Below are positions 37,898-62,624 of a stretch of 64,000 bases of DNA, one piece after another. Made by a program: the position numbers and the translations under genes. Source of the stretch: Gammaproteobacteria bacterium (GTDB lineage Bacteria; Pseudomonadota; Gammaproteobacteria; Steroidobacterales; Rariloculaceae); NCBI GenBank assembly GCA_036396795.1, contig DASWKF010000094.1:33061-97060 (forward strand), given 5' to 3'. How positions within the stretch are numbered: the stretch's first letter is position 1; every line of letters starts with the position of its first letter. Below the pieces are notes generated by a model. It made no database searches. It saw only the letters and a list, made by a program, of their open reading frames with translations, and was not told where the DNA came from.

Positions 37898-37907
37898 CCA
37901 CCCCACG

Positions 37908-38553: not shown

Positions 38554-38572
38554 TCACCTCCTGCGGAGGATT

Positions 38573-39354: not shown

Positions 39355-39390
39355 GCTCGGGTTCCTATCTCTCGTTCTCATGCCCAGAGA

Positions 39391-39416
39391 GTAAGGAATA
39401 TTCCTTACCTTGTCAA
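39391..39416 (-). promoter_or_regulatory. prlF-yhaV promoter with 18-bp perfect palindromic operator
   Basis: Minus strand reads TTGACA-AGGTAAGGAATATTCCT-TACTCT (17-nt spacer). The perfect palindrome GTAAGGAATATTCCTTAC (39391-39408) spans the spacer and the -10. Confidence 0.55.
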
Positions 39417-39681
39417 TCCAGGCGAAAATCGGTTCGGTTCAGGGTCACGAGAATCAACCGCCTTACCGCGTTCCGCTTCGCGCACGAGCCGTCGATTTTC
39501 GCGAGCTGCGCGCTTGCTTTCCGCTAGGGAATGGCGCAGGCTGATCTGCATAATCTAGCCTTTTGGCTGCCTCGTCACTAGCCGCCCGCTCCCGGGCGCG
39601 CCATTCAAGACACCCACAACGAGCCTGATTATTCGCTCTCTGCGCCCGATTCGCGCGCGGTATCTGCATTTGGAGGCCTTG

Positions 39682-39885
39682 ATGGCTATCGGAACAGTCA
39701 AGTTTTTTGACGCAGCAAGGGGATTTGGATTCATACAGCCGGAAGACGGCGCGAAAGACGTGTTCGTGCATAAGAGCGCCGTTGAGAGCGCCGGCATGAC
39801 GACGCTCTCGGAAGGTCAGCGTGTCAGCTATGAGATCGTCACCGAGCGCGGTAAAACAGCGGCCGGTAAATTAGCGGCGGCTTAG
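39682..39885 (+). CDS. Cold-shock protein (CspA family)
   Basis: [30 protein letters not shown] with RNP1/RNP2 motifs, 67 aa. GGAGG upstream. Confidence 0.93.
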
Positions 39886-39934
39886 GCGCCCTGGCCGGAG
39901 CCGCAGTCGAGTGCGGCCCGGTTCGGACGCAAGC

Positions 39935-40186
39935 ATGAGCACGCGACTCCACATAGGCAATTTGCCCTCCTCTGCCACGGAAGCCGATCTCCGCTCAAAG
40001 TTCGGGCAGTTCGGAACCGTTGAGTCGGCCATCGTGGTCACCAATGCCCAGACGGGTCGCAGCACGCGCTTCGGCATCGTCGAGATGGCGAATGACGTCG
40101 AGGCGCGGGCGGCCATCAACCGGCTGAATATGACTCAGTACGAGGACGTCATCATGTCGGTCAGTGCGATTCGGGTCGGCGGGTAG
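39935..40186 (+). CDS. RRM-type RNA-binding protein
   Basis: RLHIGNL (RNP2) and RFGIVEM (RNP1-like), 83 aa, single RRM domain. Confidence 0.82.
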   Translation: MSTRLHIGNLPSSATEADLRSKFGQFGTVESAIVVTNAQTGRSTRFGIVEMANDVEARAAINRLNMTQYEDVIMSVSAIRVGG

Positions 40187-40209
40187 AAACCGCCGGGAGC
40201 AGCGCCGCT

Positions 40210-40353
40210 ATGGCAGGACCAGGTCCGGAAACGCATGCCAAGCGACAACGTGAGCATGCAAAGCGCGAAAAACGTCGCTCGAAAGACGAGCGGCGTGCGG
40301 CGCGAAAAGCCGCGAAGCATTCCGACAAGCAGGTGGGCGAGCAGCCCTCTTGA
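40210..40353 (+). CDS. Candidate small, highly basic protein (47 aa)
   Basis: ATG-initiated ORF below the ORF-track cutoff: MAGPGPETHAKRQREHAKREKRRSKDERRAARKAAKHSDKQVGEQPS. Starts 21 nt after the RRM gene stop. No homology recognised. Confidence 0.3.
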   Translation: MAGPGPETHAKRQREHAKREKRRSKDERRAARKAAKHSDKQVGEQPS

Positions 40354-48268: not shown

Positions 48269-49279
48269 ATGACGCTCAAGCAACTCAGATACCTGATCGC
48301 GATCGTCGATTGCGGTCTCAACATCACCTCCGCCGCGGAGCGGCTGTTCACCAGCCAGCCCGGCATCTCCAAGCAGCTCAAGCAGCTCGAGGCCGAGCTC
48401 GGGATGCAGCTCTTCACCCGCAAGGGCAAGAGTCTCGCGGCCGTGACCCCCGCCGGCACCGAGGTCCTCGAGCGCGCCCGCCGCGTGCTGCGCGAGGTCG
48501 AGAACATCACCAACCTGTCGCGCGAGCTCACCGGCGAGCAGGCCGGAACGCTGTCGATCGCGACCACGCACACCCAGGCACGCTACGTGCTGCCCGACGT
48601 CATTGCCGCCTTCACCGAGCGTTATCCCAAGGTCGATTTGGAGCTGCATCAAGGCACCTCGGAGCAGATCGCCGAGCTGGTCGCGGCGCATCGCGTCGAT
48701 TTCGCGATCGCCAGCGGCTCGCTGAAGCTCTTCTCCAACCTGACGGTGCTGCCGATCTACCACTGGCACCGCATCGCGCTGGTGCCGAAGAACCATCCGC
48801 TCGCGACCGACAACAGCCCGCTGACGCTGAAGACGCTGGCGGCCTATCCGCTGGTCACCTACGTCTTCAGCCTGACCGGCGAGTCGTCGTTCAAGCAGGC
48901 TTTCCAGGCGCAGGGCCTGGATCCGCGCGTGGCGTTCACGGCGCGCGACGCCGACATCATCAAGACCTATGTGCGCATGGGCATGGGCGTCGGCATCATC
49001 GCCTCGATGGCCTACGAGTGCCCGGATCAAAAGGACCTCACGGCCATCGACGCCAAAGGCCTGTTCCCGCAGATCACGACCTGGCTCGGGTTTCCCAAGG
49101 ACATGGTGCTGCGCAGCTACATGGTGGATTTCATCAATCTGCTCGCGCCGCATCTGCCGGTGCGCTGGATCCGCGACGTCGCCGGCGCCGAGACCCCGGA
49201 GGCAGTGGCCGAGCTGCTCGAGGGCATCGAGCTGCCGGTGCGCGGCGGCTGCGAGGAAGACGCCGCGGCCGCGGCCTAA
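48269..49279 (+). CDS. cysB: LysR-family transcriptional regulator CysB
   Basis: MTLKQLRYLIAIVDCGLNITSAAERLFTSQPGISKQLKQLE closely follows the CysB/Cbl N-terminus. 336 aa, divergent from cysG-cysK. Confidence 0.9.
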   Translation: MTLKQLRYLIAIVDCGLNITSAAERLFTSQPGISKQLKQLEAELGMQLFTRKGKSLAAVTPAGTEVLERARRVLREVENITNLSRELTGEQAGTLSIATTHTQARYVLPDVIAAFTERYPKVDLELHQGTSEQIAELVAAHRVDFAIASGSLKLFSNLTVLPIYHWHRIALVPKNHPLATDNSPLTLKTLAAYPLVTYVFSLTGESSFKQAFQAQGLDPRVAFTARDADIIKTYVRMGMGVGIIASMAYECPDQKDLTAIDAKGLFPQITTWLGFPKDMVLRSYMVDFINLLAPHLPVRWIRDVAGAETPEAVAELLEGIELPVRGGCEEDAAAAA

Positions 49280-50640
49280 GCGCTCGAGATCTCCGCGGCG
49301 GCGCGCTCGCCCGATTCCATCGCGGCTTCCATGCCGCGCGCCGCCTCGCTCAGGTGCTCGCCGCAGAAATGCAGGCGGCCGTGCGCGCGGCCCATCTCGG
49401 CGGCGAGCTCGGTGACCTGCCCGGGGCGAAAATACGCCCAGCCGCCGAGCGCGAACGGGTCGCTGCCCCAGGACTTTATTCCTGCGAGCTCGAGCCGGCC
49501 GCGCGCCGCCGGCCGGATCGCTTCGATCGCCTCGATCACCAGGCGCCCGGCGTCTTTCTCGGGCAGCACGTCGAGCCGGCGGGCGTTGGGCCCCATCGTC
49601 CAGGCAGTGAAGCTCGTGACCTCGTCGGGATCCTCGCCGTTGCGCGCCGCCGCGAGCATGCCGGCGACGCCGTCGGTGTAGAGGCTCGGCGCGTAGCCGT
49701 CGTCGTTCCAGAACTCAGCCGTGTGCGTGAGGTAGACCTGCGTCATCGCCTGATAGGGCAGCGTCTGCACGGCGCGCGCTTGCGCACCGCTAAGCGGCGG
49801 ATCGATGGCGATGTTTCCGAGCACCGGGAACGGCAGCGCGCAGACGACCGCGCGGGCGGCGTAGCGGCTGCCGTCGGCGCAGCGAACCAGCGCTGCATCG
49901 TCGCCGCTTTCGATCGCGACGACTACTTTGTCGAGCAGCACGCCGGGCGCAAGCGCCTCGGCCATCGCCTCGGGGATGCGCTGCACGCCGTCGCGGGCGG
50001 TGTAGCCGATCACATCGCCGGCAGCCTCGGCTCGCTGTGCGGTCGAGAACGCCGCGCGAAACAGCATCAACAGCGCCGAGACGTCGGCGGCGTTCTCGCC
50101 GTAGCCCACGTTGATGCCATAGCTCATATCGATGAGCTCGTCCGCGCATCCTAAGCCGCGCATCCAGTCGCGCAGCGAGATGTCGTGAATCGCCTGCTTG
50201 GGATCCAGCCAGTCGGCCGGTTTTGCGAGCGGGTTCTCGCGGGCCGTGAGCACGCGGTGATGCATCCACGGCATCAGCGCGCGGTCCGGCTCGGGAAACG
50301 GATTGGCCGGATGCGACGGCCACTCGGACTGGCGAATGATCTGTCGGCCCAGCACCAGCTCCTGCTCGCGAAAAAACTTGCAGATCGGCGTGACGTCGAT
50401 GAGCTCGACGCCGTGGCGCTCGGCGGCGGCGATGAGGCGCGTGTAACCGGCGCCGATGTAGGTGCCGCCGGCCTCGGCGGTGCTTGCGAGCTGGCGCATC
50501 GAGTGCACCCGGCCGCCGACGCGCGCTTGCGCTTCGAGCACGCGGGCATCCAGCCCGGCGCGCTTGAGCGCGAGCGCGGCCGAGAGCCCGGCGAGCCCCG
50601 CGCCGACGACGACGACCTCGTGCCGCTCCGCCCGGCTCAC
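49276..50640 (-). CDS. FAD-dependent amine-oxidase-fold flavoprotein; by context a candidate copro/protoporphyrinogen oxidase (HemY/CgoX role)
   Basis: GxGxxG VVVVGAGLAGLSAALAL...VLEAQARVGGRV and C-terminal LHFCGEH...GMEAAMESGERAA (flavin amine oxidase-like). GTG start overlaps the hemH stop (GTGA). Last gene of the heme operon. Confidence 0.6.
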   Translation of the reverse strand: MSRAERHEVVVVGAGLAGLSAALALKRAGLDARVLEAQARVGGRVHSMRQLASTAEAGGTYIGAGYTRLIAAAERHGVELIDVTPICKFFREQELVLGRQIIRQSEWPSHPANPFPEPDRALMPWMHHRVLTARENPLAKPADWLDPKQAIHDISLRDWMRGLGCADELIDMSYGINVGYGENAADVSALLMLFRAAFSTAQRAEAAGDVIGYTARDGVQRIPEAMAEALAPGVLLDKVVVAIESGDDAALVRCADGSRYAARAVVCALPFPVLGNIAIDPPLSGAQARAVQTLPYQAMTQVYLTHTAEFWNDDGYAPSLYTDGVAGMLAAARNGEDPDEVTSFTAWTMGPNARRLDVLPEKDAGRLVIEAIEAIRPAARGRLELAGIKSWGSDPFALGGWAYFRPGQVTELAAEMGRAHGRLHFCGEHLSEAARGMEAAMESGERAAAEISSA

Positions 50641-51746
50641 GGCGTCGAGACACCGTCGGCGACGCCGGCGAGCGACGGCCTCGGCGCCCCGGGCCGCCCC
50701 GACAGGCAGCAGTTGACCGGGCAGAAATCGTGGCTCGCGCCGAAATCGCCGAGCGCGCGGCGCTCGGGATCCTCGGTCATGCGCTCATCGATGAGCTCGC
50801 GCACCATCGCGACGTAGCTCGGGTGGCTGCCGACGGTCGCGGCGCGAAGCATGTTCAAGCCGAGCTCGCTCGCGCGCTTTTTCGCGTCGACGTCGAGATC
50901 GAGCACGACTTCCATGTGATCGCAGACGAAGCCGATGGGGGCGACCACGACGTCACGCGCACTGCGCGCGGCGAGCTTCTCGAGCACGGCGTCGATCGAC
51001 GGCGACAGCCAGGCATCGCCGTAAGCGGTGTTGTGGCTCTGGTAGGCGAGCTCCCAAGGCGGCGCGGCGATGCTTGCGGCGACGAGCCGGCAGGCTTCGT
51101 GCAGCTGGCTCTGATACGGCGCGTGGCGCGCCATCGACTCGGGCAGGCTGTGCGCGGTGAACACCAGCGGCGCGGCGGCGCGCGCGTGCTCCGGCAGCTC
51201 GGCGTAGGCCTCGCGCACGCGCGAGCTTACGGCTTCGATGAAGCCCGGATGGTTGTAGCCGTGGCGCAGCTTGTCGATGACGGGTGCCGCGTCGAGACCC
51301 GCGACCGCCGCGTAGAGATCCTCGCGGTAACGGCGGCAGCCGCTGTAGGAGCCGAAGGTGCTGGTGACGTAGGCGATCGCGCGGCGCACGCCGTCGTCGC
51401 GCATGCGCTTCACTGTGTCGGGCAAGAGCGGATGCCAATTGCGATTGCCCCAGTAGACCGGAAGATCGAGCCCCGACGTCTCGAGCTCGCGCTCGAGCGC
51501 GCCGATGAAGGCGCGCGTGTGCGCGTTGATCGGGCTGACGCCGCCGAAAGCCGCGTAGCGCTCGGCGATCTTGGCTTTGGCTTGCGGCGGCAGCTTCAAG
51601 CCCTCGAGCACCTTGTCGAGGAAGGGCATGACGTCGCCGGGTCCCTCGGGACCGCCGAAAGACACCACCAGCACGGCGTCGTAGGCGTGCGCCGCGGTGT
51701 CGATGAGCCCCAGGGGCGGGGCCGCCGGACGCGGGCCCTCAGGCAT
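50637..51746 (-). CDS. hemH: Ferrochelatase (actinobacterial/CpfC-like, Cys-rich C-terminus)
   Basis: DAVLVVSFGGPEGPGDVMPFL, YWGNRNWHPLL, HSLP motifs. Internal SGCRRY and C-terminal FCPVNCC cysteines. ATG 51746 (alternative GTG 51755) overlaps the upstream gene. Confidence 0.9.
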   Translation of the reverse strand: MPEGPRPAAPPLGLIDTAAHAYDAVLVVSFGGPEGPGDVMPFLDKVLEGLKLPPQAKAKIAERYAAFGGVSPINAHTRAFIGALERELETSGLDLPVYWGNRNWHPLLPDTVKRMRDDGVRRAIAYVTSTFGSYSGCRRYREDLYAAVAGLDAAPVIDKLRHGYNHPGFIEAVSSRVREAYAELPEHARAAAPLVFTAHSLPESMARHAPYQSQLHEACRLVAASIAAPPWELAYQSHNTAYGDAWLSPSIDAVLEKLAARSARDVVVAPIGFVCDHMEVVLDLDVDAKKRASELGLNMLRAATVGSHPSYVAMVRELIDERMTEDPERRALGDFGASHDFCPVNCCLSGRPGAPRPSLAGVADGVSTP

Positions 51747-52491
51747 CCGCGCCACCGGCCGGGCTCGCGCTCTGCCAGGCGACCTTGCCGACGAAGAACG
51801 GCCCGAGGCTCGTCAGGTATTGCGAGGTCTGCTCGGTCTTGCGCATTTCCTGCACCACCGCCGACAGCGGATAGAGCTGCGGGCCCAAAAGCCCGATGAT
51901 GAAATCGTTGTCGTGCTTGTCGAGACCGTGGCAGGCGAGGCGGATGTCCGCCGCGAGCCCGGCGAAGCCGAAGCGCTTGGCGAGGCTGCCGTGCTCGCCG
52001 AGGATCTGGCGCTGCTTGGCCGCGGGCAGGGTTTGGAACGACTTGGCGCGCTGCAAGGGATACCAGACGGCCCAGGGGAATTTGGCGTTGGTGACTTTGG
52101 CGCGGGGCTTGGCGAACAGCGCGTCCTCGAGATCGGGCTCATAGCCGAGCGTATAGGTGCGCCCGAGCATGTCGAAGTCGGGCTTGCGCGTCATCGAGAC
52201 GAACGGCGGCGCGTTCAACAGTGCGCGCAGCGGGCCTACGAAGTAATCGGGATCCTCGCTCATGACGACGAGCCCGATGCCCACTGGATCGTTGACGTCG
52301 AGATACAACGCGCCGTCGACACCGGCGTGCTCGAGCGCTTTCACCGCGGGCGCGGGATGCTGGCATCCGCCGTAGGCCATGAACTGCATGAACAGGCGCC
52401 GATCGAGCGCGATCGGCTTGCCGTCCTTGAGGCCCTTCTCGCTCAGATCCAGGCTCGACTCCTGCCCGGTTTCGTGCTCCGTTGCGCTCAT
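51739..52491 (-). CDS. Chlorite dismutase-family protein, HemQ/ChdC (coproheme decarboxylase) candidate
   Basis: 250 aa. Cld-family pattern WAVWYPLQR...QRQILGEHG (proximal His region) ...GLDKHDNDFIIGL. Sits between hemE and hemH. Confidence 0.7.
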   Translation of the reverse strand: MSATEHETGQESSLDLSEKGLKDGKPIALDRRLFMQFMAYGGCQHPAPAVKALEHAGVDGALYLDVNDPVGIGLVVMSEDPDYFVGPLRALLNAPPFVSMTRKPDFDMLGRTYTLGYEPDLEDALFAKPRAKVTNAKFPWAVWYPLQRAKSFQTLPAAKQRQILGEHGSLAKRFGFAGLAADIRLACHGLDKHDNDFIIGLLGPQLYPLSAVVQEMRKTEQTSQYLTSLGPFFVGKVAWQSASPAGGADA

Positions 52492-52501
52492 CGTTTGACC
52501 C

Positions 52502-53524
52502 TCATAGCTTCTCTTCGTGCACGGCCTCGACCAGCGCCGCGACGCTTGCGAGCGGCGTGCCGGGCAGGATGCCGTGCCCCAGGTTGACGATATGCCCGCG
52601 CGCGGCGACGCGCTCGAGCAGCTCGCGCGCCGCGGCGCGCGTGACCTCGGCGCCGCCGAGCAGCAGCGCCGGATCGAGGTTGCCCTGCAGCGCGCGGCTG
52701 CCGTCGAGACGCTGTTGCAGCGCCGCGAGGTCGACGCGCCAGTCGCAGGCGAGCACCTCGGCCGGAAGCTGTGCGTAGGCGTCGGTCAGATGCGGCGCGT
52801 TTTGCAGGAACAGGATACGCGGCAGGCCCGCCTCGCCCACCTTGCTCAGCAGGCGCAGCAGGTGCGGGCGGATCTGCCGCTGCCACTGCGCCAGCGACAG
52901 CACCCCGGCCCAGGAATCGAAAATCTGCACGGCATCGGCGCCGGCTTCGCCCTGGCGGATCAGATACGCCGCCAGCAGATCGGTGAGCCTCGCCAACAGC
53001 GCGTCGAGCGCCTCGGGCTGGGCCGCAGCGAAGGCGCGCAGCGTCGGGAAATCCTTGACCCCGCGGCCTTCGACGAGGTAAGCCGCGAGCGTCCAGGGCG
53101 CGCCGCAAAAGCCGAGCAAGGCGACCTCGGCGGGCAACGCACGGCGCGCGCTTGCAAGCGCCCCCATGACCTCGGGCGCGACCGCCTCGTCATCGGGCTC
53201 GAGCAGAGCCTCGACGTCGGCCTTGCTGCGGATCGGGTTTGCGACCACCGGCCCCGGAGCGAAATCGAACTCGATGCCGAGCGCCGGTATCGGGCTCATG
53301 ATGTCGGCAAACACAATGGCGGCATCGAGCGCAAAGCGCTTGAACGGCAGCAGCGTCACCTCGGTCGCGAGCTCGGGAGTAGAGGCGAGCGCCTTGAAGC
53401 TGTGGCGCGCGCGCAGCTCGCGGTACTCCGGCAAGTAACGGCCGGCCTGGCGCATGATCCACAGCGGCCGGCGCGGAAGCTCCGCTAGCTCGATCGCGTC
53501 GAGTAGCAGCGGGCGCATGCTCAC
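52502..53524 (-). CDS. hemE: Uroporphyrinogen decarboxylase
   Basis: PLWIMRQAGRYLPEYRE signature, 340 aa. GTG 53524 (alternative ATG 53518) lies 1 nt after the response-regulator stop. Confidence 0.95.
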   Translation of the reverse strand: MSMRPLLLDAIELAELPRRPLWIMRQAGRYLPEYRELRARHSFKALASTPELATEVTLLPFKRFALDAAIVFADIMSPIPALGIEFDFAPGPVVANPIRSKADVEALLEPDDEAVAPEVMGALASARRALPAEVALLGFCGAPWTLAAYLVEGRGVKDFPTLRAFAAAQPEALDALLARLTDLLAAYLIRQGEAGADAVQIFDSWAGVLSLAQWQRQIRPHLLRLLSKVGEAGLPRILFLQNAPHLTDAYAQLPAEVLACDWRVDLAALQQRLDGSRALQGNLDPALLLGGAEVTRAAARELLERVAARGHIVNLGHGILPGTPLASVAALVEAVHEEKL

Positions 53525-53525
53525 C

Positions 53526-54254
53526 TCAACCGGCCTCGGCGTCGCCGCTGCTGACCTCGGGCGCCGGCGTGAAGCGGTAACCGACGCCGCGCACGGTGTG
53601 GAAGTGCGAAGGAATCTCCGGGTTGCGCTCGAAGCGCTTGCGCAGCCGCACGATGAAGTTGTCGATGGTGCGCGTCGACGGGAACACCTCGTAGCCCCAG
53701 ACCCGGTCGAGTATGTCCTCGCGCGGTACGATGCTGCCGGCGCGCTCCGACAGAACTTTGAGGATCATGGCCTCCTTGTGCGTCAACGCGTGCTCGCTGC
53801 CGTCCCAGGCGCGGGCTTGATAGGTCTTGAAATCGACCTCGTTGCCGCTGAAGCTCAAAGCCGCGCGGCTGGCGTGGTACCAGTCGCTGCGCCTCAAGAT
53901 GGCGGCGACGCGCAACAGCAGCTCCTTCAAGTGGAACGGCTTGGCGAGATAGTCGTCGCCGCCGGCTTCGAGCCCGCGGATCCGGTCGGCGGGCTCGCCT
54001 TTGACCGTAAGGAACAACACCGGCGTCTGTAAGCCTTCGCGCCTGAGCTCCTCGCAGACCCGAAGGCCGTCGAGCTTGGGCATCATGACGTCGAGCACGA
54101 CGAGGTCGAAGTGCGTGGCGCGCAGCTTCTCGAGCCCCTCGGCGCCGTCGTGCGCGACCTCGGCGGCGTAGCCCTCGGCCGCGAGGTTCTCGCTGATGCC
54201 GGCGGCGAGATGCGCCTCGTCGTCGACGACCAGGATATGCGCTTGTGCGCTCAT
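53526..54254 (-). CDS. OmpR-family response regulator
   Basis: Receiver ILVVDDE...LVVLDVMMPKLDG...KPF plus winged-helix output (TRTIDNFIVRLRKRFE...HTVRGVGYRF). Its ATG overlaps the kinase stop (ATGA). Confidence 0.9.
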   Translation of the reverse strand: MSAQAHILVVDDEAHLAAGISENLAAEGYAAEVAHDGAEGLEKLRATHFDLVVLDVMMPKLDGLRVCEELRREGLQTPVLFLTVKGEPADRIRGLEAGGDDYLAKPFHLKELLLRVAAILRRSDWYHASRAALSFSGNEVDFKTYQARAWDGSEHALTHKEAMILKVLSERAGSIVPREDILDRVWGYEVFPSTRTIDNFIVRLRKRFERNPEIPSHFHTVRGVGYRFTPAPEVSSGDAEAG

Positions 54255-55330
54255 GCCTTGCCTGCCAGCGGCCAATCGAGCGTAATCGTCGCGCCGCGAT
54301 TGGGGCCATCGCTGTGCGCGGTGATGCTGCCGCCGGAGAGCTCCACCAGGCGCTTGACGATGTAGAGCCCGAGCCCGGTGCCCGGCGTCGAGCGGCGCAG
54401 CTCATCGCCCAAGCGAAAGAATTTCTCGAAGATCAGGCCGCCGTCCTCGGGCGGAAAGCCGAGGCCGTCGTCGCCAACGACGATCGTCGCATGCTCGCCG
54501 CTGCGCGCCGCCTGAAGCACGATCTTCGAGCCCGCGCCCGCGATGCAGGCCTTGAGCGCGTTGTCGAGCACGTTGCGCAGCACCGATTCCAGGCTCGTAT
54601 GGTCGGCGTGCAAGGTCAGGTCGGCGGGCACCTGGGCCTCGATCGCGATGCCGTTCGCCTTGGCGCGCTCGGCGATCTCGTCGATGCACGCCTGCGCGAC
54701 GCTGGCGAGCGCGACCGGCTCGCTGACGATGGTGTGGCGGCCTTCCTCGAGCCGCGCGGTGTCGAGCAGATTGTCGACCATGCGCAACAGCCGCTCGCCG
54801 TCGTCGAGGATGCGCCGGCCGAGGCGCTGGGTATCGGCATCGCTGACCCGCATCAGCAAGGTCTCGGCCGACAGCCGCATGCTCGCGAGCGGGCTCTTGA
54901 ACTCATGCGACACCGCGGCGAGGAAATTCTGCTGGCGCTTTCTGAGCTCGGCGTCGTGACGGATGGTGCGCGTCAGCACCGCCATGCCGCCGATCAGCAC
55001 CAGCAGAAAAAACCCGCCCTCCCAGGTGAAGCGGTTGATGCGCGATTCGGCCTCCTCCTCGAGCGCGTCGATCGCCTCGACGCGGACCGTCGCAAGCCCT
55101 GTGCCGACGTTCAGATGCGGCAGGAGCTCCTCGAAGCGATCCGTGCGCCCGGCATTGACCGCGGTCACGACCTGGGCGTCGGCGTCGTAGAGCCGCGCGA
55201 TGCGGTCGCGCACGTCGCGCGCGTAGCTGACGTGATCGGCCATCCACCAGGCGACCGTCGCCGCCGACAGCACCAGCAGCGCGAGGAAGCCGATCTGCAA
55301 CGCCTTGACGGGCTCACGTCTGAGAGCCAT
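54251..55330 (-). CDS. Sensor histidine kinase (two TM, ~75-aa outside loop, no HAMP recognised)
   Basis: TM1 residues ~10-30, TM2 GGFFLLVLIGGMAVL, H-box AAVSHEFKSPL, N box LDNALK, G boxes DDGLGF and GTGLGL. Start overlaps the hemL end by 17 nt. Confidence 0.88.
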   Translation of the reverse strand: MALRREPVKALQIGFLALLVLSAATVAWWMADHVSYARDVRDRIARLYDADAQVVTAVNAGRTDRFEELLPHLNVGTGLATVRVEAIDALEEEAESRINRFTWEGGFFLLVLIGGMAVLTRTIRHDAELRKRQQNFLAAVSHEFKSPLASMRLSAETLLMRVSDADTQRLGRRILDDGERLLRMVDNLLDTARLEEGRHTIVSEPVALASVAQACIDEIAERAKANGIAIEAQVPADLTLHADHTSLESVLRNVLDNALKACIAGAGSKIVLQAARSGEHATIVVGDDGLGFPPEDGGLIFEKFFRLGDELRRSTPGTGLGLYIVKRLVELSGGSITAHSDGPNRGATITLDWPLAGKA

Positions 55331-56651
55331 GGGTACCTCCCGAAGCGGTATGCGGAACGAGGTTGGCGAGCACCTGGCTCAAGGTCGCGCAGAGCTGCTC
55401 GATGTCCTCGCGCTGATGCGCGAGCGAGACGAAGCCGATCTCGTACGCCGACGGCGGGAGCGCCACCCCGCGCGCGAGCAGGCCGTGGAAGATCTCGGCG
55501 TAGAGCGCCCCGGCGTCCGCCGGAAGCGCCTCGGCGGAGCGCGGCGGCGTGTCGCTGAGCCAGGCGATCCAGAACATCGAGCCGAGCCGCACGAGGCTGG
55601 CGCTGACGCCGCTTTGACGCAAGCATTCGGTGAGAAGCTGCTCGAGATATTGGCCGCGCGCCTCCAACTGCTTCCAGCCGTCCTGCGCCGCCAGCAGCCT
55701 CAAGGTCGAAAGCCCCGCGGCCATCGCCACCGGATTGCCGGACAGCGTGCCGGCCTGATAGACGGATCCCAGCGGCGCAAGCTCGGCCATCAGCGCCTTG
55801 CAGCCGCCGAAGGCGCCGACCGGCATGCCGCCACCGATGACCTTACCGAAGGTGGCGAGATCCGGCGTGATGCCGTAGTGCGCCGCCGCGCCGCCCGGGC
55901 CGAGACGAAAGCCCGAGATAACCTCGTCGAAGATCAGCAAGCTCCCGTGCGCTTGCGTGAGCGCGCGGAGCTTGGCGAGGAACTCCGGCCGTTGCAGCAA
56001 CAGCCCGTTGTTCGCCGGCACCGGCTCGATGATGAGCGCGGCGATGCGCGCGCCTTCCTCGGCGAACAGCCGCTCGAGCTCGAGCGTGTCGTCGAGCCGC
56101 AGCACCCGTGTCAGCGCGGTGAAGTCTTGCGGCACGCCGGCCGACGACGGCTTGCCGAAAGTCGCAAGCCCCGAGCCCGCGGCGACCAGCAGCGAATCCA
56201 CGTGGCCGTGATAGCAGCCGGAGAACTTGACGATCAGGTCGCGGCCGGTCGCGCCGCGCGCCAGCCGGATCGCGCTCATGACGGCCTCGGTGCCCGAAGA
56301 CACGAAGCGCAGCTGCTCGAGCCCCGGATAGCTCGCGACCACGGTTTCGGCGAGCTCGATCTCCCCCGGGCAGGGTGCGCCGTAGGACGTGCCGCGGCGC
56401 GCCGCCCGCTCGATCGCCTCGACCACCGACGGGTGCGCGTGGCCGAGGATCAACGGCCCCCAGGAGCCGACGAAATCGAGGTAGCTTCTGCCGTCGACGT
56501 CGGTCATGTAGGCGCCCTTGGCGGACTCGATCACCAATGGCGTGCCGCCGACGGCACCGTATGCGCGCACCGGCGAGCTCACGCCGCCGGGCAGGCGCGC
56601 GCGCGCCCGGTCGAACCACTGTGCCGAGCTCGGTCCGGCGGAGTTGCTCAC
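55314..56651 (-). CDS. hemL: Glutamate-1-semialdehyde 2,1-aminomutase
   Basis: LPGGVSSPVRAY, GSWGPLILGH, PLP lysine in TFGKVIGGG. GTG 56651 overlaps the hemB stop (GTGA). The ORF-track 650-aa extension was trimmed. Confidence 0.93.
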   Translation of the reverse strand: MSNSAGPSSAQWFDRARARLPGGVSSPVRAYGAVGGTPLVIESAKGAYMTDVDGRSYLDFVGSWGPLILGHAHPSVVEAIERAARRGTSYGAPCPGEIELAETVVASYPGLEQLRFVSSGTEAVMSAIRLARGATGRDLIVKFSGCYHGHVDSLLVAAGSGLATFGKPSSAGVPQDFTALTRVLRLDDTLELERLFAEEGARIAALIIEPVPANNGLLLQRPEFLAKLRALTQAHGSLLIFDEVISGFRLGPGGAAAHYGITPDLATFGKVIGGGMPVGAFGGCKALMAELAPLGSVYQAGTLSGNPVAMAAGLSTLRLLAAQDGWKQLEARGQYLEQLLTECLRQSGVSASLVRLGSMFWIAWLSDTPPRSAEALPADAGALYAEIFHGLLARGVALPPSAYEIGFVSLAHQREDIEQLCATLSQVLANLVPHTASGGTHGSQT

Positions 56652-57652
56652 AGCCAGCGTCCCCGGATCGCATCGGCGGCGTGATAAGTGATGATCTGGT
56701 CGGCGCCGGCGCGGCGGATCGCGAGCAGGTTCTCGCGCACCACCTGCGCCTCGTCGATCCAGCCCTGCGCGGCCGCGGCCTTGACCATCGCGTATTCGCC
56801 GGAGACGTTGTAGGCGGCGAGCGGCAGGCCGGTCGATTCGCGCACGCGCGCGATCACGTCGAGATAGGCGAGCGCCGGCTTGACCATCAGAATGTCCGCG
56901 CCTTCGGCCGCATCCAGCGCGGTCTCGCGCAGCGCCTCGCGGGCGTTGCGGCAGTCCATCTGATAGCTCTGGCGGTCGCCCTGCTGTGGCGCCGAGCCCG
57001 CCGCGTCGCGAAACGGCCCGTAGTAGCCGGAGGCGTATTTGACCGCGTAGGCCATCAGGATCACGTCGCTGAAGCCTTGAGCGTCCAAGGCGTCGCGAAT
57101 GGCGGCGATGCGCCCGTCCATCATGTCCGACGGCGCGATCACGTCGGCGCCGGCCTCGGCGTGGCTGAGCGCGGTCTTGACGATGGGCTCGAGCGAGACG
57201 TCGTTGGCGATGCGGCCCTGCTCGATGAGCCCGCAGTGGCCGTGATCGGTGTAGGCGCACAGGCACACGTCGGTCATGACGATGAGATCGTCGCCGAAAG
57301 CCCGTTTGAGCCGCATCGTTGCCTGCTGCACCGCGCCGTTGGGATCCCAGGCGAGGCGGCCGTCGGCGGTTTTCGCGGCGCCCGCCTCGGGGTGGCCGAA
57401 CAAGAGCGCTGCGCGGATGCCGAGCGAGAGCTCCGCCTCGACGGTCGCAAGCAGCGTCGTGAAGCCGAGCTGCTTAAGCCCCGGCAGCGACGCGAACGGC
57501 TCGACGGCATCGTCGGCGGGCAGCACGAAGCGCGGCACGATGAATTGCGACGGCGCGATGTGGGTCTCGGCGACGAGATTTCGCAGCGCCTTGCTGCGCC
57601 GCAGCCGCCGCGGCCGCACGCGGCCCGGTGTCGTCACGTTGAGCTTGCGCAT
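56648..57652 (-). CDS. hemB: Porphobilinogen synthase (Zn-type)
   Basis: RPRRLR, Cys-rich metal site DVCLCAYTDHGHCG, Schiff-base lysines (MVKPA, YAVKYAS). 334 aa from ATG 57652, overlapping the hemD stop. Confidence 0.95.
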   Translation of the reverse strand: MRKLNVTTPGRVRPRRLRRSKALRNLVAETHIAPSQFIVPRFVLPADDAVEPFASLPGLKQLGFTTLLATVEAELSLGIRAALLFGHPEAGAAKTADGRLAWDPNGAVQQATMRLKRAFGDDLIVMTDVCLCAYTDHGHCGLIEQGRIANDVSLEPIVKTALSHAEAGADVIAPSDMMDGRIAAIRDALDAQGFSDVILMAYAVKYASGYYGPFRDAAGSAPQQGDRQSYQMDCRNAREALRETALDAAEGADILMVKPALAYLDVIARVRESTGLPLAAYNVSGEYAMVKAAAAQGWIDEAQVVRENLLAIRRAGADQIITYHAADAIRGRWL

Positions 57653-58374
57653 CACATCGCCTCCATGAGCCCTTCCAGGCTCGGGCTTTCCGCCTGCGCC
57701 TTGACCTCGAGATCCGCGGCGTGGGCGGCGGCGGTCGTCGACGGCCCGATCGTGAAAATATCCGCGTCGGCGTCGAGCTCGACCTGATTGACGAAGCCGG
57801 TCACCGCGCTCGGGCTCGCGAGCAGCACCGCGTCGACGCCGAGCGTCGAGAGCTTGGTCTTGCGGTCCGAGGGCTCGGCCGGCACGGTATGGTAGACGTC
57901 GAGGCGCACGCAGCGCACGCCCGCGTGCCCGAGCCGGTCCTCGATCGTCGCCGGCGCGTTCTCGGCCAGCACCAGGATCACGCTGCGCCCGGCGACGTCG
58001 GCGCGCATCGCCAGCGCCTCGGCCAAGGAGGCCGCCGTGCCCGCCTCGCTGACGAGATCGACGCGCCCCAGCAGCGCCCTGGCCGCGGCGGCGGTCGCGG
58101 GCCCGACGGCGGCGACCTTGACGCGCGCGGGCAGGAGCTGCGGGTGCAGCCGCGTGAACGACTCGATGCCGCGGCGCGAGGTGAACACCAGCCAGTCGGC
58201 GCGCGGCAGCTCGACGACGATGCGGCCGGTGAGCGCGGCGCTGCGGCGGTCCTCGACGCGCAGGCAGGGCAGGATCACCGGGATCGCGCCGGCATCGCGC
58301 AGGATCGCGGCCCAGGTCTCGCTGTCCTCGAGGTTGCGCGTGACCAGCACGCGTCTGCCTTTGACCTTGCTCAT
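57652..58374 (-). CDS. hemD: Uroporphyrinogen-III synthase
   Basis: 240 aa, VLVTR...W..FTS..G two-lobed HEM4 pattern. Positioned between hemC and hemB with ATGA overlap to hemC. Confidence 0.82.
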   Translation of the reverse strand: MSKVKGRRVLVTRNLEDSETWAAILRDAGAIPVILPCLRVEDRRSAALTGRIVVELPRADWLVFTSRRGIESFTRLHPQLLPARVKVAAVGPATAAAARALLGRVDLVSEAGTAASLAEALAMRADVAGRSVILVLAENAPATIEDRLGHAGVRCVRLDVYHTVPAEPSDRKTKLSTLGVDAVLLASPSAVTGFVNQVELDADADIFTIGPSTTAAAHAADLEVKAQAESPSLEGLMEAM

Positions 58375-59276
58375 GGCTCGAGCTCCTTCCAGACGCGCTC
58401 GGCGAGCGCCTGCGCATCGGGCCCGTCGGCGCTGGCGCGCTCGAGCTTGCCTTGACGCTCGAGCATTGCGACGAATTCGAAGCCGCCGTTCGAAGCTAGG
58501 CAATACGCGCCGAGCGCGAGCTCGCAGCCGCCTTCGACGCGCGCGAGCAAGGCCCGCTCGGCATCGACGCAGGCGCGGCTCGCCGCATCGTCGAGCGGGG
58601 CGAGCGCCTCGCGTATCGCGGCATCTTGGGTCCGGCATTGCACCGCGAGCGCGCCTTGCGCCGGTGCCGGCGGAAAGTCGCGGATTGCGAGCGCCGCGAC
58701 GACGCGATCGCCCAGCGCGATCGCGGGCTGCCCGAGCGTCGCCGCTTGCAGGCGCTCGATGCCCGCGGCGGCGAGCACCACGGCATCGACGCGCTCGCCG
58801 ACCCGCTGGATGCGCGTCGGCACGTTGCCGCGCAGCGGCTGGACCTTGAGATCCGGGCGCAGATGCCTGATCCACGCCTGACGCCGCGCCGATGCCGTGC
58901 CGACCGTGACCCCCTGGCGCAGCGGCAGCACCGCGGCGCTCGCATCCGCCGCGGCTCTGGTGGCGACGACGACGTCGGCGGCGGCGTGACGCCGCGGCAC
59001 TGCGGCGACGACGAGCCCGCGCGGCGAGCTCGTCGGCAGGTCCTTGTACGAATGCACCGCGACATCGACGGCGCCCGCGATGAGCGCCTGCTCGATCTCG
59101 CGGACGAACACGCCCTGCGGACCGATGCTGCCGAAAAACGGCGCGTCGGAGCGATCGCCTGCGGTGCGGATGATCACCAGCTCGGTGCCGATGCCCTGTG
59201 CGGCAAGCGCGGCGGCGATGCCGGCGGCCTGGGTGCGCGCGAGCTGCGAGCCGCGCGTGCCGATCTTGAGCATCAT
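58371..59276 (-). CDS. hemC: Hydroxymethylbilane synthase (porphobilinogen deaminase)
   Basis: LKIGTRGSQLARTQ, HSYKDLP, cofactor-Cys region EGGCELALGAY. 301 aa. Its ATG overlaps the hemA stop (ATGA). Confidence 0.93.
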   Translation of the reverse strand: MMLKIGTRGSQLARTQAAGIAAALAAQGIGTELVIIRTAGDRSDAPFFGSIGPQGVFVREIEQALIAGAVDVAVHSYKDLPTSSPRGLVVAAVPRRHAAADVVVATRAAADASAAVLPLRQGVTVGTASARRQAWIRHLRPDLKVQPLRGNVPTRIQRVGERVDAVVLAAAGIERLQAATLGQPAIALGDRVVAALAIRDFPPAPAQGALAVQCRTQDAAIREALAPLDDAASRACVDAERALLARVEGGCELALGAYCLASNGGFEFVAMLERQGKLERASADGPDAQALAERVWKELEP

Positions 59277-60604
59277 GCCTTGGCTCCGCCGTCGCCCGCG
59301 GCGCGCTGCTTCAGGGCGGCGCGCAGCTCGTCGGCGAACTCGGGCTCGAGGCCCGCGAGAAACGCGTCGATCGAGCCGGCCGGGCCCTGCTTGAGCAGGC
59401 CGCGCAGGCCGGCGCAGGGGATGTGCGCGAAACGCCGCGCGAGCACCTCGGCCCAGGTCGAGATCGCCTCGCGCTCGGCGGAGCCTAAGCCCTTGAGCTC
59501 CTTGCCGAGCAGCCGCTCGACGCCTTGGCGCGCGGTGTGCCGGTAGCGGTTCTGCAGCGTGCCGAACAACGGTCCGAAGATGCGCTCGGCGAAACGCTCG
59601 TAGAGCCGCTCGAGCGCGGCATCGACGAGCTCGCGCGCCTGGGCCGCCTCGACCAGCCGCGCGGCGCGGTTCTCCTCGGTGGCGGCGACGATCTCGTCCA
59701 TGCCGATGCGCTCGAGCCCGAGCCTTTTCGCTGCGGCCGCGTCGATGTCGGGCGGCACCGCCATGTCGATCAAAAGCGGCGCCTCGCCCGAGGGCGTGCG
59801 CGCCGCGAGCCGCTCGAGCACCGAGGCATCCAGCAGCGCGCTGCCCGCGCCGGTTGCCGTCAGCACGCCCTCGACGGCGGGCGGCTCGGCGTGGAACTCG
59901 GCGAGCGAGCAATGCGCGGCGCCGTGCTCGCGTGCAAGCATGGCGGCCTTGTCGGCGGAGCGGTTGACGACGATGAGCTCGATGCCGGATTTGGCGAGCG
60001 CCAGCGCCGCGCGCTCGGTCATCGCGCTGATGCCGATCAGCGCGACTGCGCCGCCGGTGCGCGCGATGCGCTCGCGCAGCTTATCGACGGCGATCTCGGC
60101 CAGCGACACGCGGCCGGCGCCGACGCGGGTCTCGCCGCGCACCTGTCTGGCGATCTTGAGCGCTTCCTCGAACAACAGCTCGAGCTTGGGGCCGATCGAG
60201 CCCGTCGCCTGCGCTTGTTCGCGGCAGTCGCGCACCTGGCCGGTGATCTCGACCTCGCCGACGGCCGCCGAGTCGAGCCCCGCGGCGACCAGAAACAGGT
60301 GCTCGCAGGCGCCTTCGCCCTGCCAGGCGCGCAAGCGGCGCTCGGCCTGGCCGGGGACGGGCGCATTCCCGGTCAGAAGCTCGAAGGCGGCGGCGCGGAT
60401 GTCGCGCGGCGTGGTCGCGCCGCGCGAGAAAATCAGCTCGACGCGGTTGCAGGTCGCCAGATACGCAAGCTCGGCCAAGCTGAGCCGCGCGGCGAAATCG
60501 CGCAGGCGCGCGGCCTGATCCTCCGCGGGCAACAGGAAGCCTTGCAGGCTTTCGCTGCCGTTCTGGCGCCAGGAAACGCCGACGATGCCGAGGTCTTCGA
60601 GCAC
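59273..60604 (-). CDS. hemA: Glutamyl-tRNA reductase
   Basis: Catalytic ATCNRVE motif, NADPH domain VALIGISAMTE, long C-terminal dimerisation helix. 443 aa, GTG start. Confidence 0.92.
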   Translation of the reverse strand: MLEDLGIVGVSWRQNGSESLQGFLLPAEDQAARLRDFAARLSLAELAYLATCNRVELIFSRGATTPRDIRAAAFELLTGNAPVPGQAERRLRAWQGEGACEHLFLVAAGLDSAAVGEVEITGQVRDCREQAQATGSIGPKLELLFEEALKIARQVRGETRVGAGRVSLAEIAVDKLRERIARTGGAVALIGISAMTERAALALAKSGIELIVVNRSADKAAMLAREHGAAHCSLAEFHAEPPAVEGVLTATGAGSALLDASVLERLAARTPSGEAPLLIDMAVPPDIDAAAAKRLGLERIGMDEIVAATEENRAARLVEAAQARELVDAALERLYERFAERIFGPLFGTLQNRYRHTARQGVERLLGKELKGLGSAEREAISTWAEVLARRFAHIPCAGLRGLLKQGPAGSIDAFLAGLEPEFADELRAALKQRAAGDGGAKA

Positions 60605-60635
60605 GCCGACTAGCCTAGGCTCCGCCCGTCCCGGT

Positions 60636-60653
60636 GTGTCACACGAGTGTCAC
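60636..60653 (-). promoter_or_regulatory. Tandem direct repeat GTGACAC-N4-GTGACAC upstream of hemA (candidate regulator site)
   Basis: Plus strand has GTGTCAC at 60636-60642 and 60647-60653, with 11-bp periodicity, 32-49 nt upstream of the hemA GTG. Confidence 0.3.
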
Positions 60654-60664
60654 CGCGGGCCCGC

Positions 60665-61744
60665 TCAGCGCGAAAACGCGACCTCGGTCGCAGCCAGGAT
60701 CGCGGTCCACTGCTCGCGGATGCTCGAGGACAGCGCCAGCTGCGCGGCGGCGCGCGCGAGGTTGTGCTCGCTCGCCGAGCCGTAGCGCGCCTCGTTCCAG
60801 GCGAAGTAGCGCTCGTTGAGCGCATCGGCGCAGAAGCGCGCCGCGAGCTCGACCGCGATCGTGAGCAGGCCCGCCGGGATCGCGCGCCATTCGGGCTCGG
60901 CGATGAACGCGCGCGCGGGCGCGGCATAGCCTGCGAGCGCGGCGCGATAGACGTCGAGGTCCAGGCGCGCCTGCGGCGCATCCTCGCCCTCGAGGTTGCA
61001 CCAGGAGCGCAGCGCATCGCCGAGCTCGAGCTGAACCGGCATACGCGCGAGCGTGTCGAGATCGACCAGGCACACGGCCTTGCCGCTTTGCGCATCGAAA
61101 ATCACGTTGGAGATCTTCGGATCGCCGTGGACGATGCGGTCTTTGGTCTGCGGCAGCGCCGGCACGGCCGCCGCGAGCTTCAGTATCTCGCCGGCGACGG
61201 CGCGCACGGCCTCGTAGTCGGCGTGCGCCTCATGCTCGACGAGCGTCCGCTCGAGATACTCAAGATGCTTGGCCGTGTCGTGCACGCCGAGGCGCGCGTT
61301 GGCGAAGGCGTGCTCGAGATCGGCGAGCGCGGCGTGGAAGCGGCCGAGCAGCCTGCCGGCCTCGCGCGCCTGCGCGGCGCCTTGCAGCCGCTCGTAGGTC
61401 ACGCCCGGGACATAGCTCAAGGTCCGCCAGACGGCGCCTTCGATCCGCTGCCAGCGCTCGCCTTGCGGCAGCGGCAGCAGCCGCGGCGTTACGAGCCCCT
61501 TGGCCTCGAGATGCCGGGTGACCACGTCGATGTCGTCGTTGATGCCGGGCGGGAAGATCGCGTTCACGCGCTGCAGCACGCGCCGCTCGCCGCCCGGCAA
61601 AGTCGCGAGCCAGCTCGAGTTGATCCAACCGGAGTCGAAGCGCTCGAGCGTCGCCCCGGCTAGGCCCAAGGCGGCGAGGGTGGCCGGCGGCGGCGGAGAT
61701 CGATCGCCCATGGGGTCGGCATCATACCTTCCCCGCGAGCTCAA
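60665..61744 (-). CDS. Phosphotransferase enzyme family protein (APH/homoserine-kinase-II-like kinase fold)
   Basis: Catalytic loop IVHGDPKISNVIFD and downstream LVDLDT (DxD). ~350 aa. Start is TTG 61744 or ATG 61711. Confidence 0.72.
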   Translation of the reverse strand: MSSRGRYDADPMGDRSPPPPATLAALGLAGATLERFDSGWINSSWLATLPGGERRVLQRVNAIFPPGINDDIDVVTRHLEAKGLVTPRLLPLPQGERWQRIEGAVWRTLSYVPGVTYERLQGAAQAREAGRLLGRFHAALADLEHAFANARLGVHDTAKHLEYLERTLVEHEAHADYEAVRAVAGEILKLAAAVPALPQTKDRIVHGDPKISNVIFDAQSGKAVCLVDLDTLARMPVQLELGDALRSWCNLEGEDAPQARLDLDVYRAALAGYAAPARAFIAEPEWRAIPAGLLTIAVELAARFCADALNERYFAWNEARYGSASEHNLARAAAQLALSSSIREQWTAILAATEVAFSR

Positions 61745-61747
61745 GCC

Positions 61748-62464
61748 TCAACCGAACTCGGACAGGATCCTGCGCGTGCCGGTGGCGCAATCGTCCTGGG
61801 AGATCGCGTCGTCCGCGCGCAGGCGGTAGTGCTCGCGCATCTCCAGGCGCAGATAATCCGAGCGGTTCTGGATGTTCTGCGCCTGCGCCTTCTCGATCGC
61901 CTCGACGATCCGGGGCGCGATCGCGCGGCAGCGGGTGAACGCGTCCGCGGTGCCGAGCAGCGTCAGGACGCCGACGTTGCCCGAGGCCGTGTAGAAGCGG
62001 GTTTTCTCATGGCTGCGGTAGAGAAACACGAACAGCGCCACCGCGGCGCCGAGGAAGCCGGCCACGGCCGCGGGCACGAACAAGCGGTCCAGCGACGTGA
62101 GCGCGGCCAGCAGGGTGTTGAAGAGCCCGAAGGCCGCGAACGCGCCCGCCGCGTACATCGTGCGCCGCGCGATCCGGCGGCTCGATCTCGGCTTCGGATT
62201 CAGGAAACGCAGGCTCAGCATGTAGTCGGCGCCGAGCTTGTTGCGCTGCCATTTGCGCACGCGCACGAAACCCTCCTCGTAGAGCGTCAGCTGCATGCGC
62301 TTGCCGGCGATGCGGTTCAAAATCTCGAAGCGCTCGCTGACGATGCGCGGCTCGGTGAACGTGAGGCCGTCGTCGCCGCCGAGCGAGATGTGCTCGGTGG
62401 CTTGGGTTTTCTCGATCCGATGAAAATAATCCGCCGTCAGTGTCGCTGTATGGTCTAGCGGCAT
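61748..62464 (-). CDS. Hypothetical membrane protein (soluble N-domain, 2 TM, soluble C-domain)
   Basis: ATG 62464 (MPLDHTATL...). Two hydrophobic helices (MYAAGAFAAFGLFNTLLAAL, FVPAAVAGFLGAAVALFVFLY). No family recognised. Its stop is 3-36 nt from the kinase-like gene start. Confidence 0.5.
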   Translation of the reverse strand: MPLDHTATLTADYFHRIEKTQATEHISLGGDDGLTFTEPRIVSERFEILNRIAGKRMQLTLYEEGFVRVRKWQRNKLGADYMLSLRFLNPKPRSSRRIARRTMYAAGAFAAFGLFNTLLAALTSLDRLFVPAAVAGFLGAAVALFVFLYRSHEKTRFYTASGNVGVLTLLGTADAFTRCRAIAPRIVEAIEKAQAQNIQNRSDYLRLEMREHYRLRADDAISQDDCATGTRRILSEFG

Positions 62465-62624
62465 GCAGACCTCGCCGTCGTCGTCGTAGTCATTCGCCCC
62501 GTGTGTCGCTCGCAATCTACGACGTTCGCGCAGCCTTGGCTGTTAAGGGTTTCACAAACGGTCGCAGAACGGCGACAGCGAAACGAAAAAATCGCGGCGA
62601 TATGTCAAGCGATCGTGCGTGATG

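Follow-up and report, generated by a model that had tools for sequence, protein, structure and literature searches.

A conserved eleven-gene heme cluster of uncultured Gammaproteobacteria with a putative coproporphyrin-type late branch and an amine-oxidase-family flavoprotein

Which route to heme is encoded by a compact cluster of eleven genes in a gammaproteobacterial genome is the question raised by a 64,000-nucleotide stretch of contig DASWKF010000094.1 (assembly GCA_036396795.1, Gammaproteobacteria bacterium, Rariloculaceae), hereafter called the window. The coproporphyrin-dependent (CPD) route has been described for Bacillota and Actinomycetota, with further reports of its coproheme decarboxylase (ChdC, or HemQ) from Acidobacteria, Planctomycetes, Deinococcus-Thermus, Chloroflexi, Nitrospirota and Thermomicrobiota (PMC10740692, PMC10991733, PMC5095920, PMC7611857). 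For Proteobacteria, HemQ is stated to be “largely absent” (PMC5095920). In reviews up to 2026, the CPD route is placed in Gram-positive bacteria and a few early-branching diderm phyla, and the known enzymes are held to suffice for every organism that makes heme (PMC13564367, PMC10991733, PMC10740692); a 2026 review regards the inventory of heme enzymes as complete (PMC13564367). In open-access text, we found no paper on the present cluster, on a gammaproteobacterial coproporphyrin route or on a porphyrinogen oxidase of the monoamine oxidase (MAO) family. We consider it reasonably likely that the cluster is one operon for a CPD heme route, in which a MAO-family flavoprotein would serve as the oxidase and a two-component system would exert control through a direct repeat.

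The cluster occupies positions 49276-60604 of the minus strand, where eleven intact genes lie head to tail in the order hemA, hemC, hemD, hemB, hemL, histidine kinase, response regulator, hemE, Cld-family gene, hemH and flavoprotein gene (Table 1). Genes were called from an open reading frame (ORF) listing together with Pfam and NCBIfam searches, and the junctions were recomputed from the sequence; these calls reproduced the eleven genes and all ten junctions given in a first-pass annotation of the window. The junctions comprise five 4-nt overlaps (ATGA at hemA/hemC, hemC/hemD and kinase/regulator; GTGA at hemB/hemL and hemH/flavoprotein), a TGATG with a 1-nt overlap (hemD/hemB), two 17-nt overlaps (hemL/kinase and Cld/hemH) and gaps of 1 nt (regulator/hemE) and 10 nt (hemE/Cld). 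With the ATG at 53518, the hemE start chosen by metagenome gene callers, the 1-nt gap widens to 7 nt, and the Cld/hemH overlap shrinks to 8 nt with the ATG at 51746 as the start. Four-base overlaps are frequent elsewhere in this high-GC window, for example in sucC/sucD/nadE, and the tightness of the cluster is therefore unexceptional by itself. Strong evidence for a non-chance cluster is the conservation of order and spacing across several dozen species-level genomes.

This conservation emerged when each GTDB species, represented by a single genome, was searched with an alignment of the Cld-family protein; 238 species matched, and 80 loci, extending 10 kb on each side, were kept and their synteny examined by tblastn. 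Several dozen uncultured Gammaproteobacteria share the full eleven-gene order (Ca. Rariloculaceae, Ca. Rariloculus and many other metagenome-assembled genomes, MAGs), usually with an APH-family phosphotransferase gene upstream and cysB-cysG downstream. The identical contig is present in several metagenomes. The tightly packed, single-strand heme supercluster that had been noticed in this one gammaproteobacterial genome recurs, with its order conserved, in relatives. Protein identity to the window ranges from 55 to 83% within Proteobacteria, where shortened variants always retain hemE-Cld-hemH-flavoprotein. Ca. Azotimanducaceae and Pseudomonadales MAGs show hemA-kinase-regulator-hemE-Cld-hemH-flavoprotein, and two MAGs labelled “Alphaproteobacteria” (L049 5867-13202 and L057) show hemC-D-B-E-Cld-H-flavoprotein without hemA, hemL or the two-component system. 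The absence of hemA and hemL from the latter fits the Shemin route (5-aminolevulinic acid synthase) of that class (PMC10991733, Table 1). Caldilineaceae (Chloroflexi) have the order regulator-Cld-hemH-hemA-C-D…B…E without the flavoprotein.

According to the proposed scheme, a single transcription unit starting at a promoter directly upstream of hemA would supply all steps from glutamyl-tRNA to heme b. The genes assigned to HemA, HemL, HemB, HemC, HemD and HemE would lead to coproporphyrinogen III; HemA scored slightly below the cut-off of its model TIGR01035 (196 against 209.6 bits). The MAO-family flavoprotein would then oxidize coproporphyrinogen III to coproporphyrin III, the ferrochelatase, of the coproporphyrin (CpfC) type by family, would insert iron to give coproheme, and the ChdC-like protein, which carries the catalytic residues, would convert coproheme to heme b. 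A kinase with two transmembrane helices and an OmpR/PhoB-type regulator may control the operon, including their own genes, via the repeat at the -35 region of hemA. In Bacillus subtilis, heme genes are ordered hemAXCDBL and hemEHY, and the early genes of the window follow the hemA(X)CDBL order. The likeness to the CPD pathway of Bacillota and Actinomycetota thus includes both this hemA-C-D-B-L order and a hemE-hemH-oxidase order as in B. subtilis, together with a putative oxidase acting after uroporphyrinogen decarboxylase, a ferrochelatase of the coproporphyrin type and a putative Cld-fold decarboxylase with the catalytic Tyr and the proximal His. The window differs in that its host is a diderm gammaproteobacterium, all steps are in one predicted operon, hemX is missing, the putative oxidase is of the MAO family, ChdC falls below HemQ thresholds and a two-component system is embedded. 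None of hemF, hemN, hemG, hemJ and hemY was seen among the ORFs of the 64-kb window scanned with Pfam and NCBIfam. The pathway, called complete in the first-pass annotation, lacks a HemY/CgoX and would be complete only if the flavoprotein took over the CgoX step.

The flavoprotein is the weakest and most interesting link of the argument. By sequence and predicted fold, it is not HemY/CgoX and is a member of the family of MAO, putrescine oxidase (PuO) and L-amino-acid oxidases (LAAO). It scored 31.9 bits against the HemY model TIGR00562 (cut-off 97.85) and at most 33 bits against PRK11883 models (cut-offs 517-560), and these matches were limited to its N-terminal flavin adenine dinucleotide (FAD)-binding region (about residues 5-58). 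Full-length matches were obtained with MAO-B, MAO-A, LAAO and PuO (sequence E 1e-28, profile E 1e-50). An AlphaFold2 model, for which a family alignment was assembled from database matches, had a predicted local distance difference test (pLDDT) score of 90.3, and its top 50 Foldseek matches were MAO, PuO, LAAO and cyclohexylamine oxidase only, with a template modelling (TM) score of about 0.75. No HemY structure appeared in the top 60 sequence matches or the top 50 fold matches. The protein is 100% identical to an NCBI protein of “MAG TPA: Gammaproteobacteria bacterium”, and its public annotation is monoamine oxidase. The coproporphyrin-type late branch of the first-pass annotation stands for HemH, which is CpfC-like, and for the Cld-family protein, which is ChdC-like, but not for the flavoprotein as HemY/CgoX.

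The FAD-binding fold is kept in the flavoprotein, but it differs from MAO-B, PuO and LAAO in its heme-gene context and in lacking the Lys near flavin N5, the Cys of covalent FAD attachment and both Tyr of the aromatic cage. MAO-B K296 corresponds to Q301, C397 to G400 and Y398 to W401, with Y435 opposite a gap (RG-ME); Q301, W401, R435, G436 and M437 are invariant across the family. Ordinary amine oxidation is unlikely because these signature residues, the flavin-N5 Lys and the aromatic cage, are replaced or missing, and invariantly so. The flavoprotein gene lies 3′ of hemH in all 59 loci with a full-length orthologue, in a position that we take to be that of hemY in the hemE-hemH-hemY order of B. 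subtilis, and no other product of the operon is a candidate for the single enzymatic step that is lacking. We give slightly better than an even chance to a non-orthologous displacement of CgoX, with the flavoprotein as a candidate coproporphyrinogen III oxidase. HemY and monoamine oxidases are known to share an FAD superfamily, and CgoN (YtpQ), HemG and HemJ set a precedent in that flavoenzymes have repeatedly and independently been recruited for this six-electron reaction (PMC10965808). These three have unrelated folds, whereas the flavoprotein of the window is a distinct branch of the FAD superfamily of HemY.

Of the competing explanations, the one that survives best accepts the CPD branch but places a canonical CgoX or CgoN elsewhere in the genome and leaves the flavoprotein an accessory role, for example the supply of hydrogen peroxide to ChdC or the oxidation of amines. 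The sequence, fold and database name of the flavoprotein agree with such a role, and ChdC does require hydrogen peroxide (PMC9953210). However, the equivalents of MAO-B K296, Y398 and Y435 are gone, exactly one step is lacking in the operon while this gene, overlapping hemH by 4 nt, fills the hemY position, and the flavoprotein accompanies hemE-Cld-hemH wherever its full-length orthologue is found. We therefore regard an accessory role as unlikely. A periplasmic amine oxidase was also considered and rejected; the flavoprotein has no signal peptide, and its Rossmann fold begins at residue 8. A canonical HemY in the Chloroflexi loci was likewise rejected, the weak tblastn match in locus L072 having proved to be an ArsO-like flavin monooxygenase.

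HemH matched over its full length the structure 28wn, named coproporphyrin III ferrochelatase (240.9 bits, E 2e-70). It scored about 130 bits against Bacillus and Listeria CpfC, about 86 bits against the human protoporphyrin ferrochelatase (PpfC) FECH, and 36 bits against the PpfC of Escherichia coli (22% identity over 145 residues). Its internal cysteine and its C-terminal C-x3-CC align with the cysteines of 28wn, and the four cysteines, of the [2Fe-2S] kind, are kept in 63 of 64 orthologues. A separate clade is known for actinobacterial CpfCs that carry a [2Fe-2S] cluster at the C-terminus (PMC7340540). The window HemH resembles 28wn in score and motif and differs in its proteobacterial host; its [2Fe-2S] cluster is putative. 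The assignment of HemH by family membership to the coproporphyrin type, rather than to PpfC, is well supported, and its substrate would be coproporphyrin III.

The Cld-family protein matched only two models in NCBIfam, both of HemQ (“hydrogen peroxide-dependent heme synthase”). Both the sequence and the family profile matched only ChdC structures at E < 0.01, namely those of Thermus (1VDH), Corynebacterium, Streptomyces, Listeria and Geobacillus in this order, and no chlorite dismutase was among the PDB matches of the profile. An AlphaFold model (mean pLDDT 69.9) contained the two-ferredoxin-like-domain fold of Cld and ChdC. Its top 34 Foldseek matches were ChdC or ChdC-like, with a probability of 1.0 and TM scores of 0.5-0.6 against ChdC structures, and Clds appeared only from rank 35. 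The Tyr of a WAVWYP motif aligns with Y135 of the Corynebacterium enzyme (CdChdC) and Y147 of the Listeria enzyme (LmChdC), and the His of an EHG motif aligns with the proximal His (LmChdC H174, CdChdC H158); neither residue varies among 18 family members. They are Y144 and H167 in full-length numbering, and Y143 and H166 in the family alignment. The description that suits the protein best is a divergent ChdC/HemQ-like clade, not a chlorite dismutase. Coproheme decarboxylation is its most likely role because the gene sits between hemE and hemH. The best match in both sequence and fold, Thermus thermophilus TT1485 (PDB 1VDH), also comes from a diderm host; it differs in that identity is only about 19% and that the window clade has its own invariant motifs, DIRLACHGLD and DNDF. 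The invariant stretch after the proximal His reads D-I/V-R-L-A-C-H-G-L-D across the clade and includes D181, R183, C186 and H187. Its Asp-Arg pair, close to the distal side, is reminiscent of DyP peroxidases, in a stretch where alignment and model are unreliable.

The kinase has two transmembrane helices (about residues 10-30 and 103-122, from hydropathy and an orthologue alignment) flanking a loop of about 70 residues, and no HAMP or PAS domain was found in it. In the orthologue alignment, the helices and the juxtamembrane segment are conserved and the loop far less so. A heme, porphyrin, or membrane or redox cue would be plausible as the signal because conservation in the sensor falls on the transmembrane helices and not on the loop. 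In most loci, no cluster protein is better conserved than the regulator (70-83% identity). The best models of the regulator were RpaB, MtrA and PhoB (167-189 bits, all under their cut-offs), and those of the kinase were PnpS, CreC and PhoR (all far under), so that by model cut-offs the pair would be orthologous to no named system. In Corynebacterium, HrrSA and ChrSA control CPD genes, and HrrSA represses hemA, hemE, hemH and chdC (PMC10991733). The window pair resembles HrrSA/ChrSA, and HssRS of Staphylococcus, as a two-component system tied to heme homeostasis, but it combines a HisKA kinase with an OmpR/PhoB regulator and is encoded inside the biosynthetic operon. To our knowledge, it is not orthologous to any of these systems.

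A direct repeat with an 11-bp period lies 33 nt before the GTG of hemA and overlaps a -35-like GTGACA. It is the sole match in the window and was missing from the features listed in the first-pass annotation. Alignment shows it in all 44 loci that hold the upstream region of hemA, with variable flanking bases, and nearly every locus having it has it once, always immediately before hemA. The 11-bp period, and the TGTCA core read on the other strand, liken it to the Pho box bound by PhoB-type regulators, and the models with the best scores for the two-component pair include PhoB and PhoR. The repeat is probably the operator of the operon's own OmpR/PhoB-type regulator. In most listed loci a TAnnnT hexamer, judged by eye and unscored, stands about 19 nt past the repeat. 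The start codon follows this hexamer by 7-8 nt in the window and in many relatives, and in others the leader is about 35 nt long; the hemA mRNA may therefore be leaderless or near-leaderless in part of the lineage. Generic promoter, terminator, Rfam and tRNA scans gave nothing specific to the heme cluster, and terminator-like sites in the region were not in excess in the generic scan (10 against 6.6 ± 2.7 in shuffles). A further observation concerns the Caldilineaceae, in which an OmpR-type regulator with about 27% identity to that of the window is encoded immediately upstream of Cld-hemH-hemA-hemC-hemD (L061 8802-9599, also L064); the linkage of a regulator to heme genes may predate the proteobacterial cluster.

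Several observations weigh against an operon for the CPD route with the flavoprotein as oxidase. First, the flavoprotein fails every HemY family test, and its proposed role is drawn from position, co-occurrence and the need for one step; a canonical hemY, a cgoN or a full protoporphyrin branch may be present elsewhere in the genome. Second, the direct repeat is not statistically unusual in the window alone, where 1.05 matches are expected. Third, the Cld-family protein scored far below the HemQ cut-offs (31.6 against 235 bits for NF042928 and 24 against 253 bits for NF008913), and its model is poor at the heme pocket (pLDDT < 50 for residues 147-182). Fourth, D181-x-R183, 15 and 17 residues past the proximal His, is invariant near the position of the Cld distal Arg, although the alignment is ambiguous there, those with LmChdC and CdChdC differing by four residues. 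Finally, Cld-like homologues of 60-63% identity stand alone, away from heme clusters, in some loci of MAGs labelled Thermodesulfobacteriota, Dadabacteria or Chloroflexi (Anaerolineae). Two such solitary orthologues (about 60-62% identity) lie between argB/argD/argF and hslUV (L066 9989-10711) and next to the ArsO-like flavin monooxygenase gene (L072 9941-10708).

The low HemQ scores, the Asp-Arg pair and the homologues outside heme clusters would suit an explanation in which the Cld-family protein is a heme chaperone, a peroxidase or a Cld-type enzyme. Heme would then be made by the protoporphyrin route, as is normal for Proteobacteria (PMC10740692, PMC5095920), with hemF or hemN elsewhere and the flavoprotein as protoporphyrinogen oxidase. 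We consider this improbable, since the ferrochelatase is CpfC-like and very unlike the PpfC of E. coli, the catalytic Tyr and proximal His of ChdC are invariant and the profile met no chlorite dismutase in the PDB, and the Cld gene is fitted between hemE and hemH with a 10-nt gap and an overlap.

The cluster, whose GC3 (G+C content at third codon positions) is 0.87-0.91, equals the rest of the window in both GC and GC3. Its early enzymes are about as far from those of Caldilineaceae as from those of E. coli, a comparison that does not favour either source. Recent lateral transfer of a complete heme module of the Gram-positive type would fit the hemAXCDBL- and hemEHY-like order, the actinobacterial-clade cysteine motif of HemH and the mere 26% identity of HemA to E. 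coli HemA, but is very improbable given the matching composition, the equal distances of the early enzymes, a putative oxidase that is not the Gram-positive HemY, and the occurrence of the cluster in many species of at least two gammaproteobacterial families with conserved flanking synteny (APH, cysB-cysG). In uncultured Gammaproteobacteria (Ca. Rariloculaceae and relatives) the arrangement is old and lineage-wide, not a recent insertion. Of the two origins offered by the first-pass annotation, lateral acquisition and a lineage-specific organisation, synteny in relatives thus favours the second. For the Cld-hemH pair, the affinity to Firmicutes and Actinobacteria that it drew was not recovered, the closest non-proteobacterial relatives in our search being in MAGs labelled Chloroflexi (Caldilineaceae).

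A more general proposal is that widespread uncultured Alpha- and Gammaproteobacteria use the CPD route, that its first committed step has passed to a hitherto unrecognised isofunctional enzyme, a MAO-family oxidase that displaced HemY in situ, and that the operon is autoregulated through a dedicated two-component system and a Pho-box-like repeat; we hold this tentatively, as somewhat short of probable. If true, the coproporphyrin route would extend to abundant uncultured Proteobacteria, and the MAO-family flavoprotein would add one more independent origin of porphyrinogen oxidation to those of HemY, HemG, HemJ and CgoN. The flavoprotein is a well-defined candidate for a new coproporphyrinogen oxidase and should be simple to clone. 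Metagenome pathway calls would label these organisms as lacking the terminal heme steps, their proteins being currently named “chlorite dismutase” and “monoamine oxidase” in databases. A compact, self-contained operon of nine heme enzymes might also be of use in engineering, and the candidate regulator-operator pair may offer a handle on the control of heme synthesis.

Table 1 Features of the heme cluster and its neighbourhood (window coordinates unless a locus is named)
Feature	Position	Strand	Remarks
hemA, glutamyl-tRNA reductase	59273-60604	-	443 aa, GTG start; GlutR_N, Shikimate_DH and GlutR_dimer domains
hemC, hydroxymethylbilane synthase	58371-59276	-	TIGR00212 252.5 bits (cut-off 164)
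hemD, uroporphyrinogen-III synthase	57652-58374	-	Pfam HEM4 150.6 bits
hemB, porphobilinogen synthase	56648-57652	-	NF006762 458.9 bits (cut-off 297)
hemL, glutamate-1-semialdehyde 2,1-aminomutase	55314-56651	-	TIGR00713 529 bits (cut-off 527.3)
Sensor histidine kinase	54251-55330	-	359 aa; HisKA and HATPase_c (Pfam)
OmpR/PhoB-family response regulator	53526-54254	-	Response_reg and Trans_reg_C (Pfam); REC and winged helix
hemE, uroporphyrinogen decarboxylase	52502-53524	-	TIGR01464 361.5 bits (cut-off 303)
Cld-family protein, putative coproheme decarboxylase	51739-52491	-	PF06778 46.6 bits
hemH, coproporphyrin-type ferrochelatase (CpfC-like)	50637-51755	-	Four-cysteine motif C140, C345, C349, C350
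FAD amine-oxidase-family flavoprotein	49276-50640	-	454 aa; Pfam Amino_oxidase 197 bits, positions 1-442 of 443
Direct repeat TGACAC-TCGTG-TGACA (RTGACA-N5-RTGACA)	60637..60652	-	11-bp period, upstream of hemA
-10-like hexamer TAGGCT	60612..60617	-	Spaced 19 nt from the repeat and 7 nt from the hemA GTG; read from sequence
LysR gene, CysB-like	48269-49279	+	413.7 bits (cut-off 436)
APH-family phosphotransferase gene	60665-61744	-	Also precedes hemA in many relatives
255-aa ORF	61748-62515	-	Before the APH gene; no Pfam or NCBIfam match
60-aa ORF	31972-32154		Between alaS and tRNA-Ser; csrA only as a candidate label of the first-pass annotation
cysH examples in relatives	L008 13249-13974; L027 8504-9310; L045 13302-14093

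The gene content of the window bears out the diderm, gammaproteobacterial context noted at first. It includes zapD, pilBCD, pilSR, sucD, nadE, bamD-rluD, clpB, aspS and mutS, in addition to recA-recX-alaS, tRNA-Ser(GCT) and a TonB-dependent receptor. Downstream of the heme cluster, the cysB and flavoprotein genes converge with their stop codons overlapping by 4 nt (49276-49279), and cysB is followed by cysG (532 bits) and then cysK. Between the flavoprotein gene and cysB, most relatives carry cysH, encoding 3′-phosphoadenosine-5′-phosphosulfate reductase, which is absent from the window and from L017. The co-localisation of cysG with the heme branch, pointed out in the first-pass annotation, holds as a conserved adjacency. 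As a co-transcribed part of the heme cluster, however, cysG was rejected; it is a member of a separate sulfur-assimilation unit, cysB-cysG-cysK, whose cysB lies on the opposite strand. On the other side, the APH-family gene was rejected as a member of the operon, the conserved promoter and repeat separating it from hemA.

In two Pseudomonadales/Azotimanducaceae-type loci, a DUF169 (COG2043) gene is found upstream of the cluster, right before hemA in L075 (4916-5701) and about 2.5 kb before hemE in L044 (5621-6508). Elsewhere in the window, a stretch immediately 3′ of tRNA-Ser(GCT) (32503-32595) has a G+C content of 0.58-0.63 (32503-40300), against 0.65-0.72 elsewhere. It encodes a methyltransferase (33533-34387, minus strand), a regulator with winged-helix and TPR domains (34482-36137, plus strand) and a YhaV/PrlF toxin-antitoxin pair (38573-39381, minus strand), and may be an island inserted at the tRNA gene.

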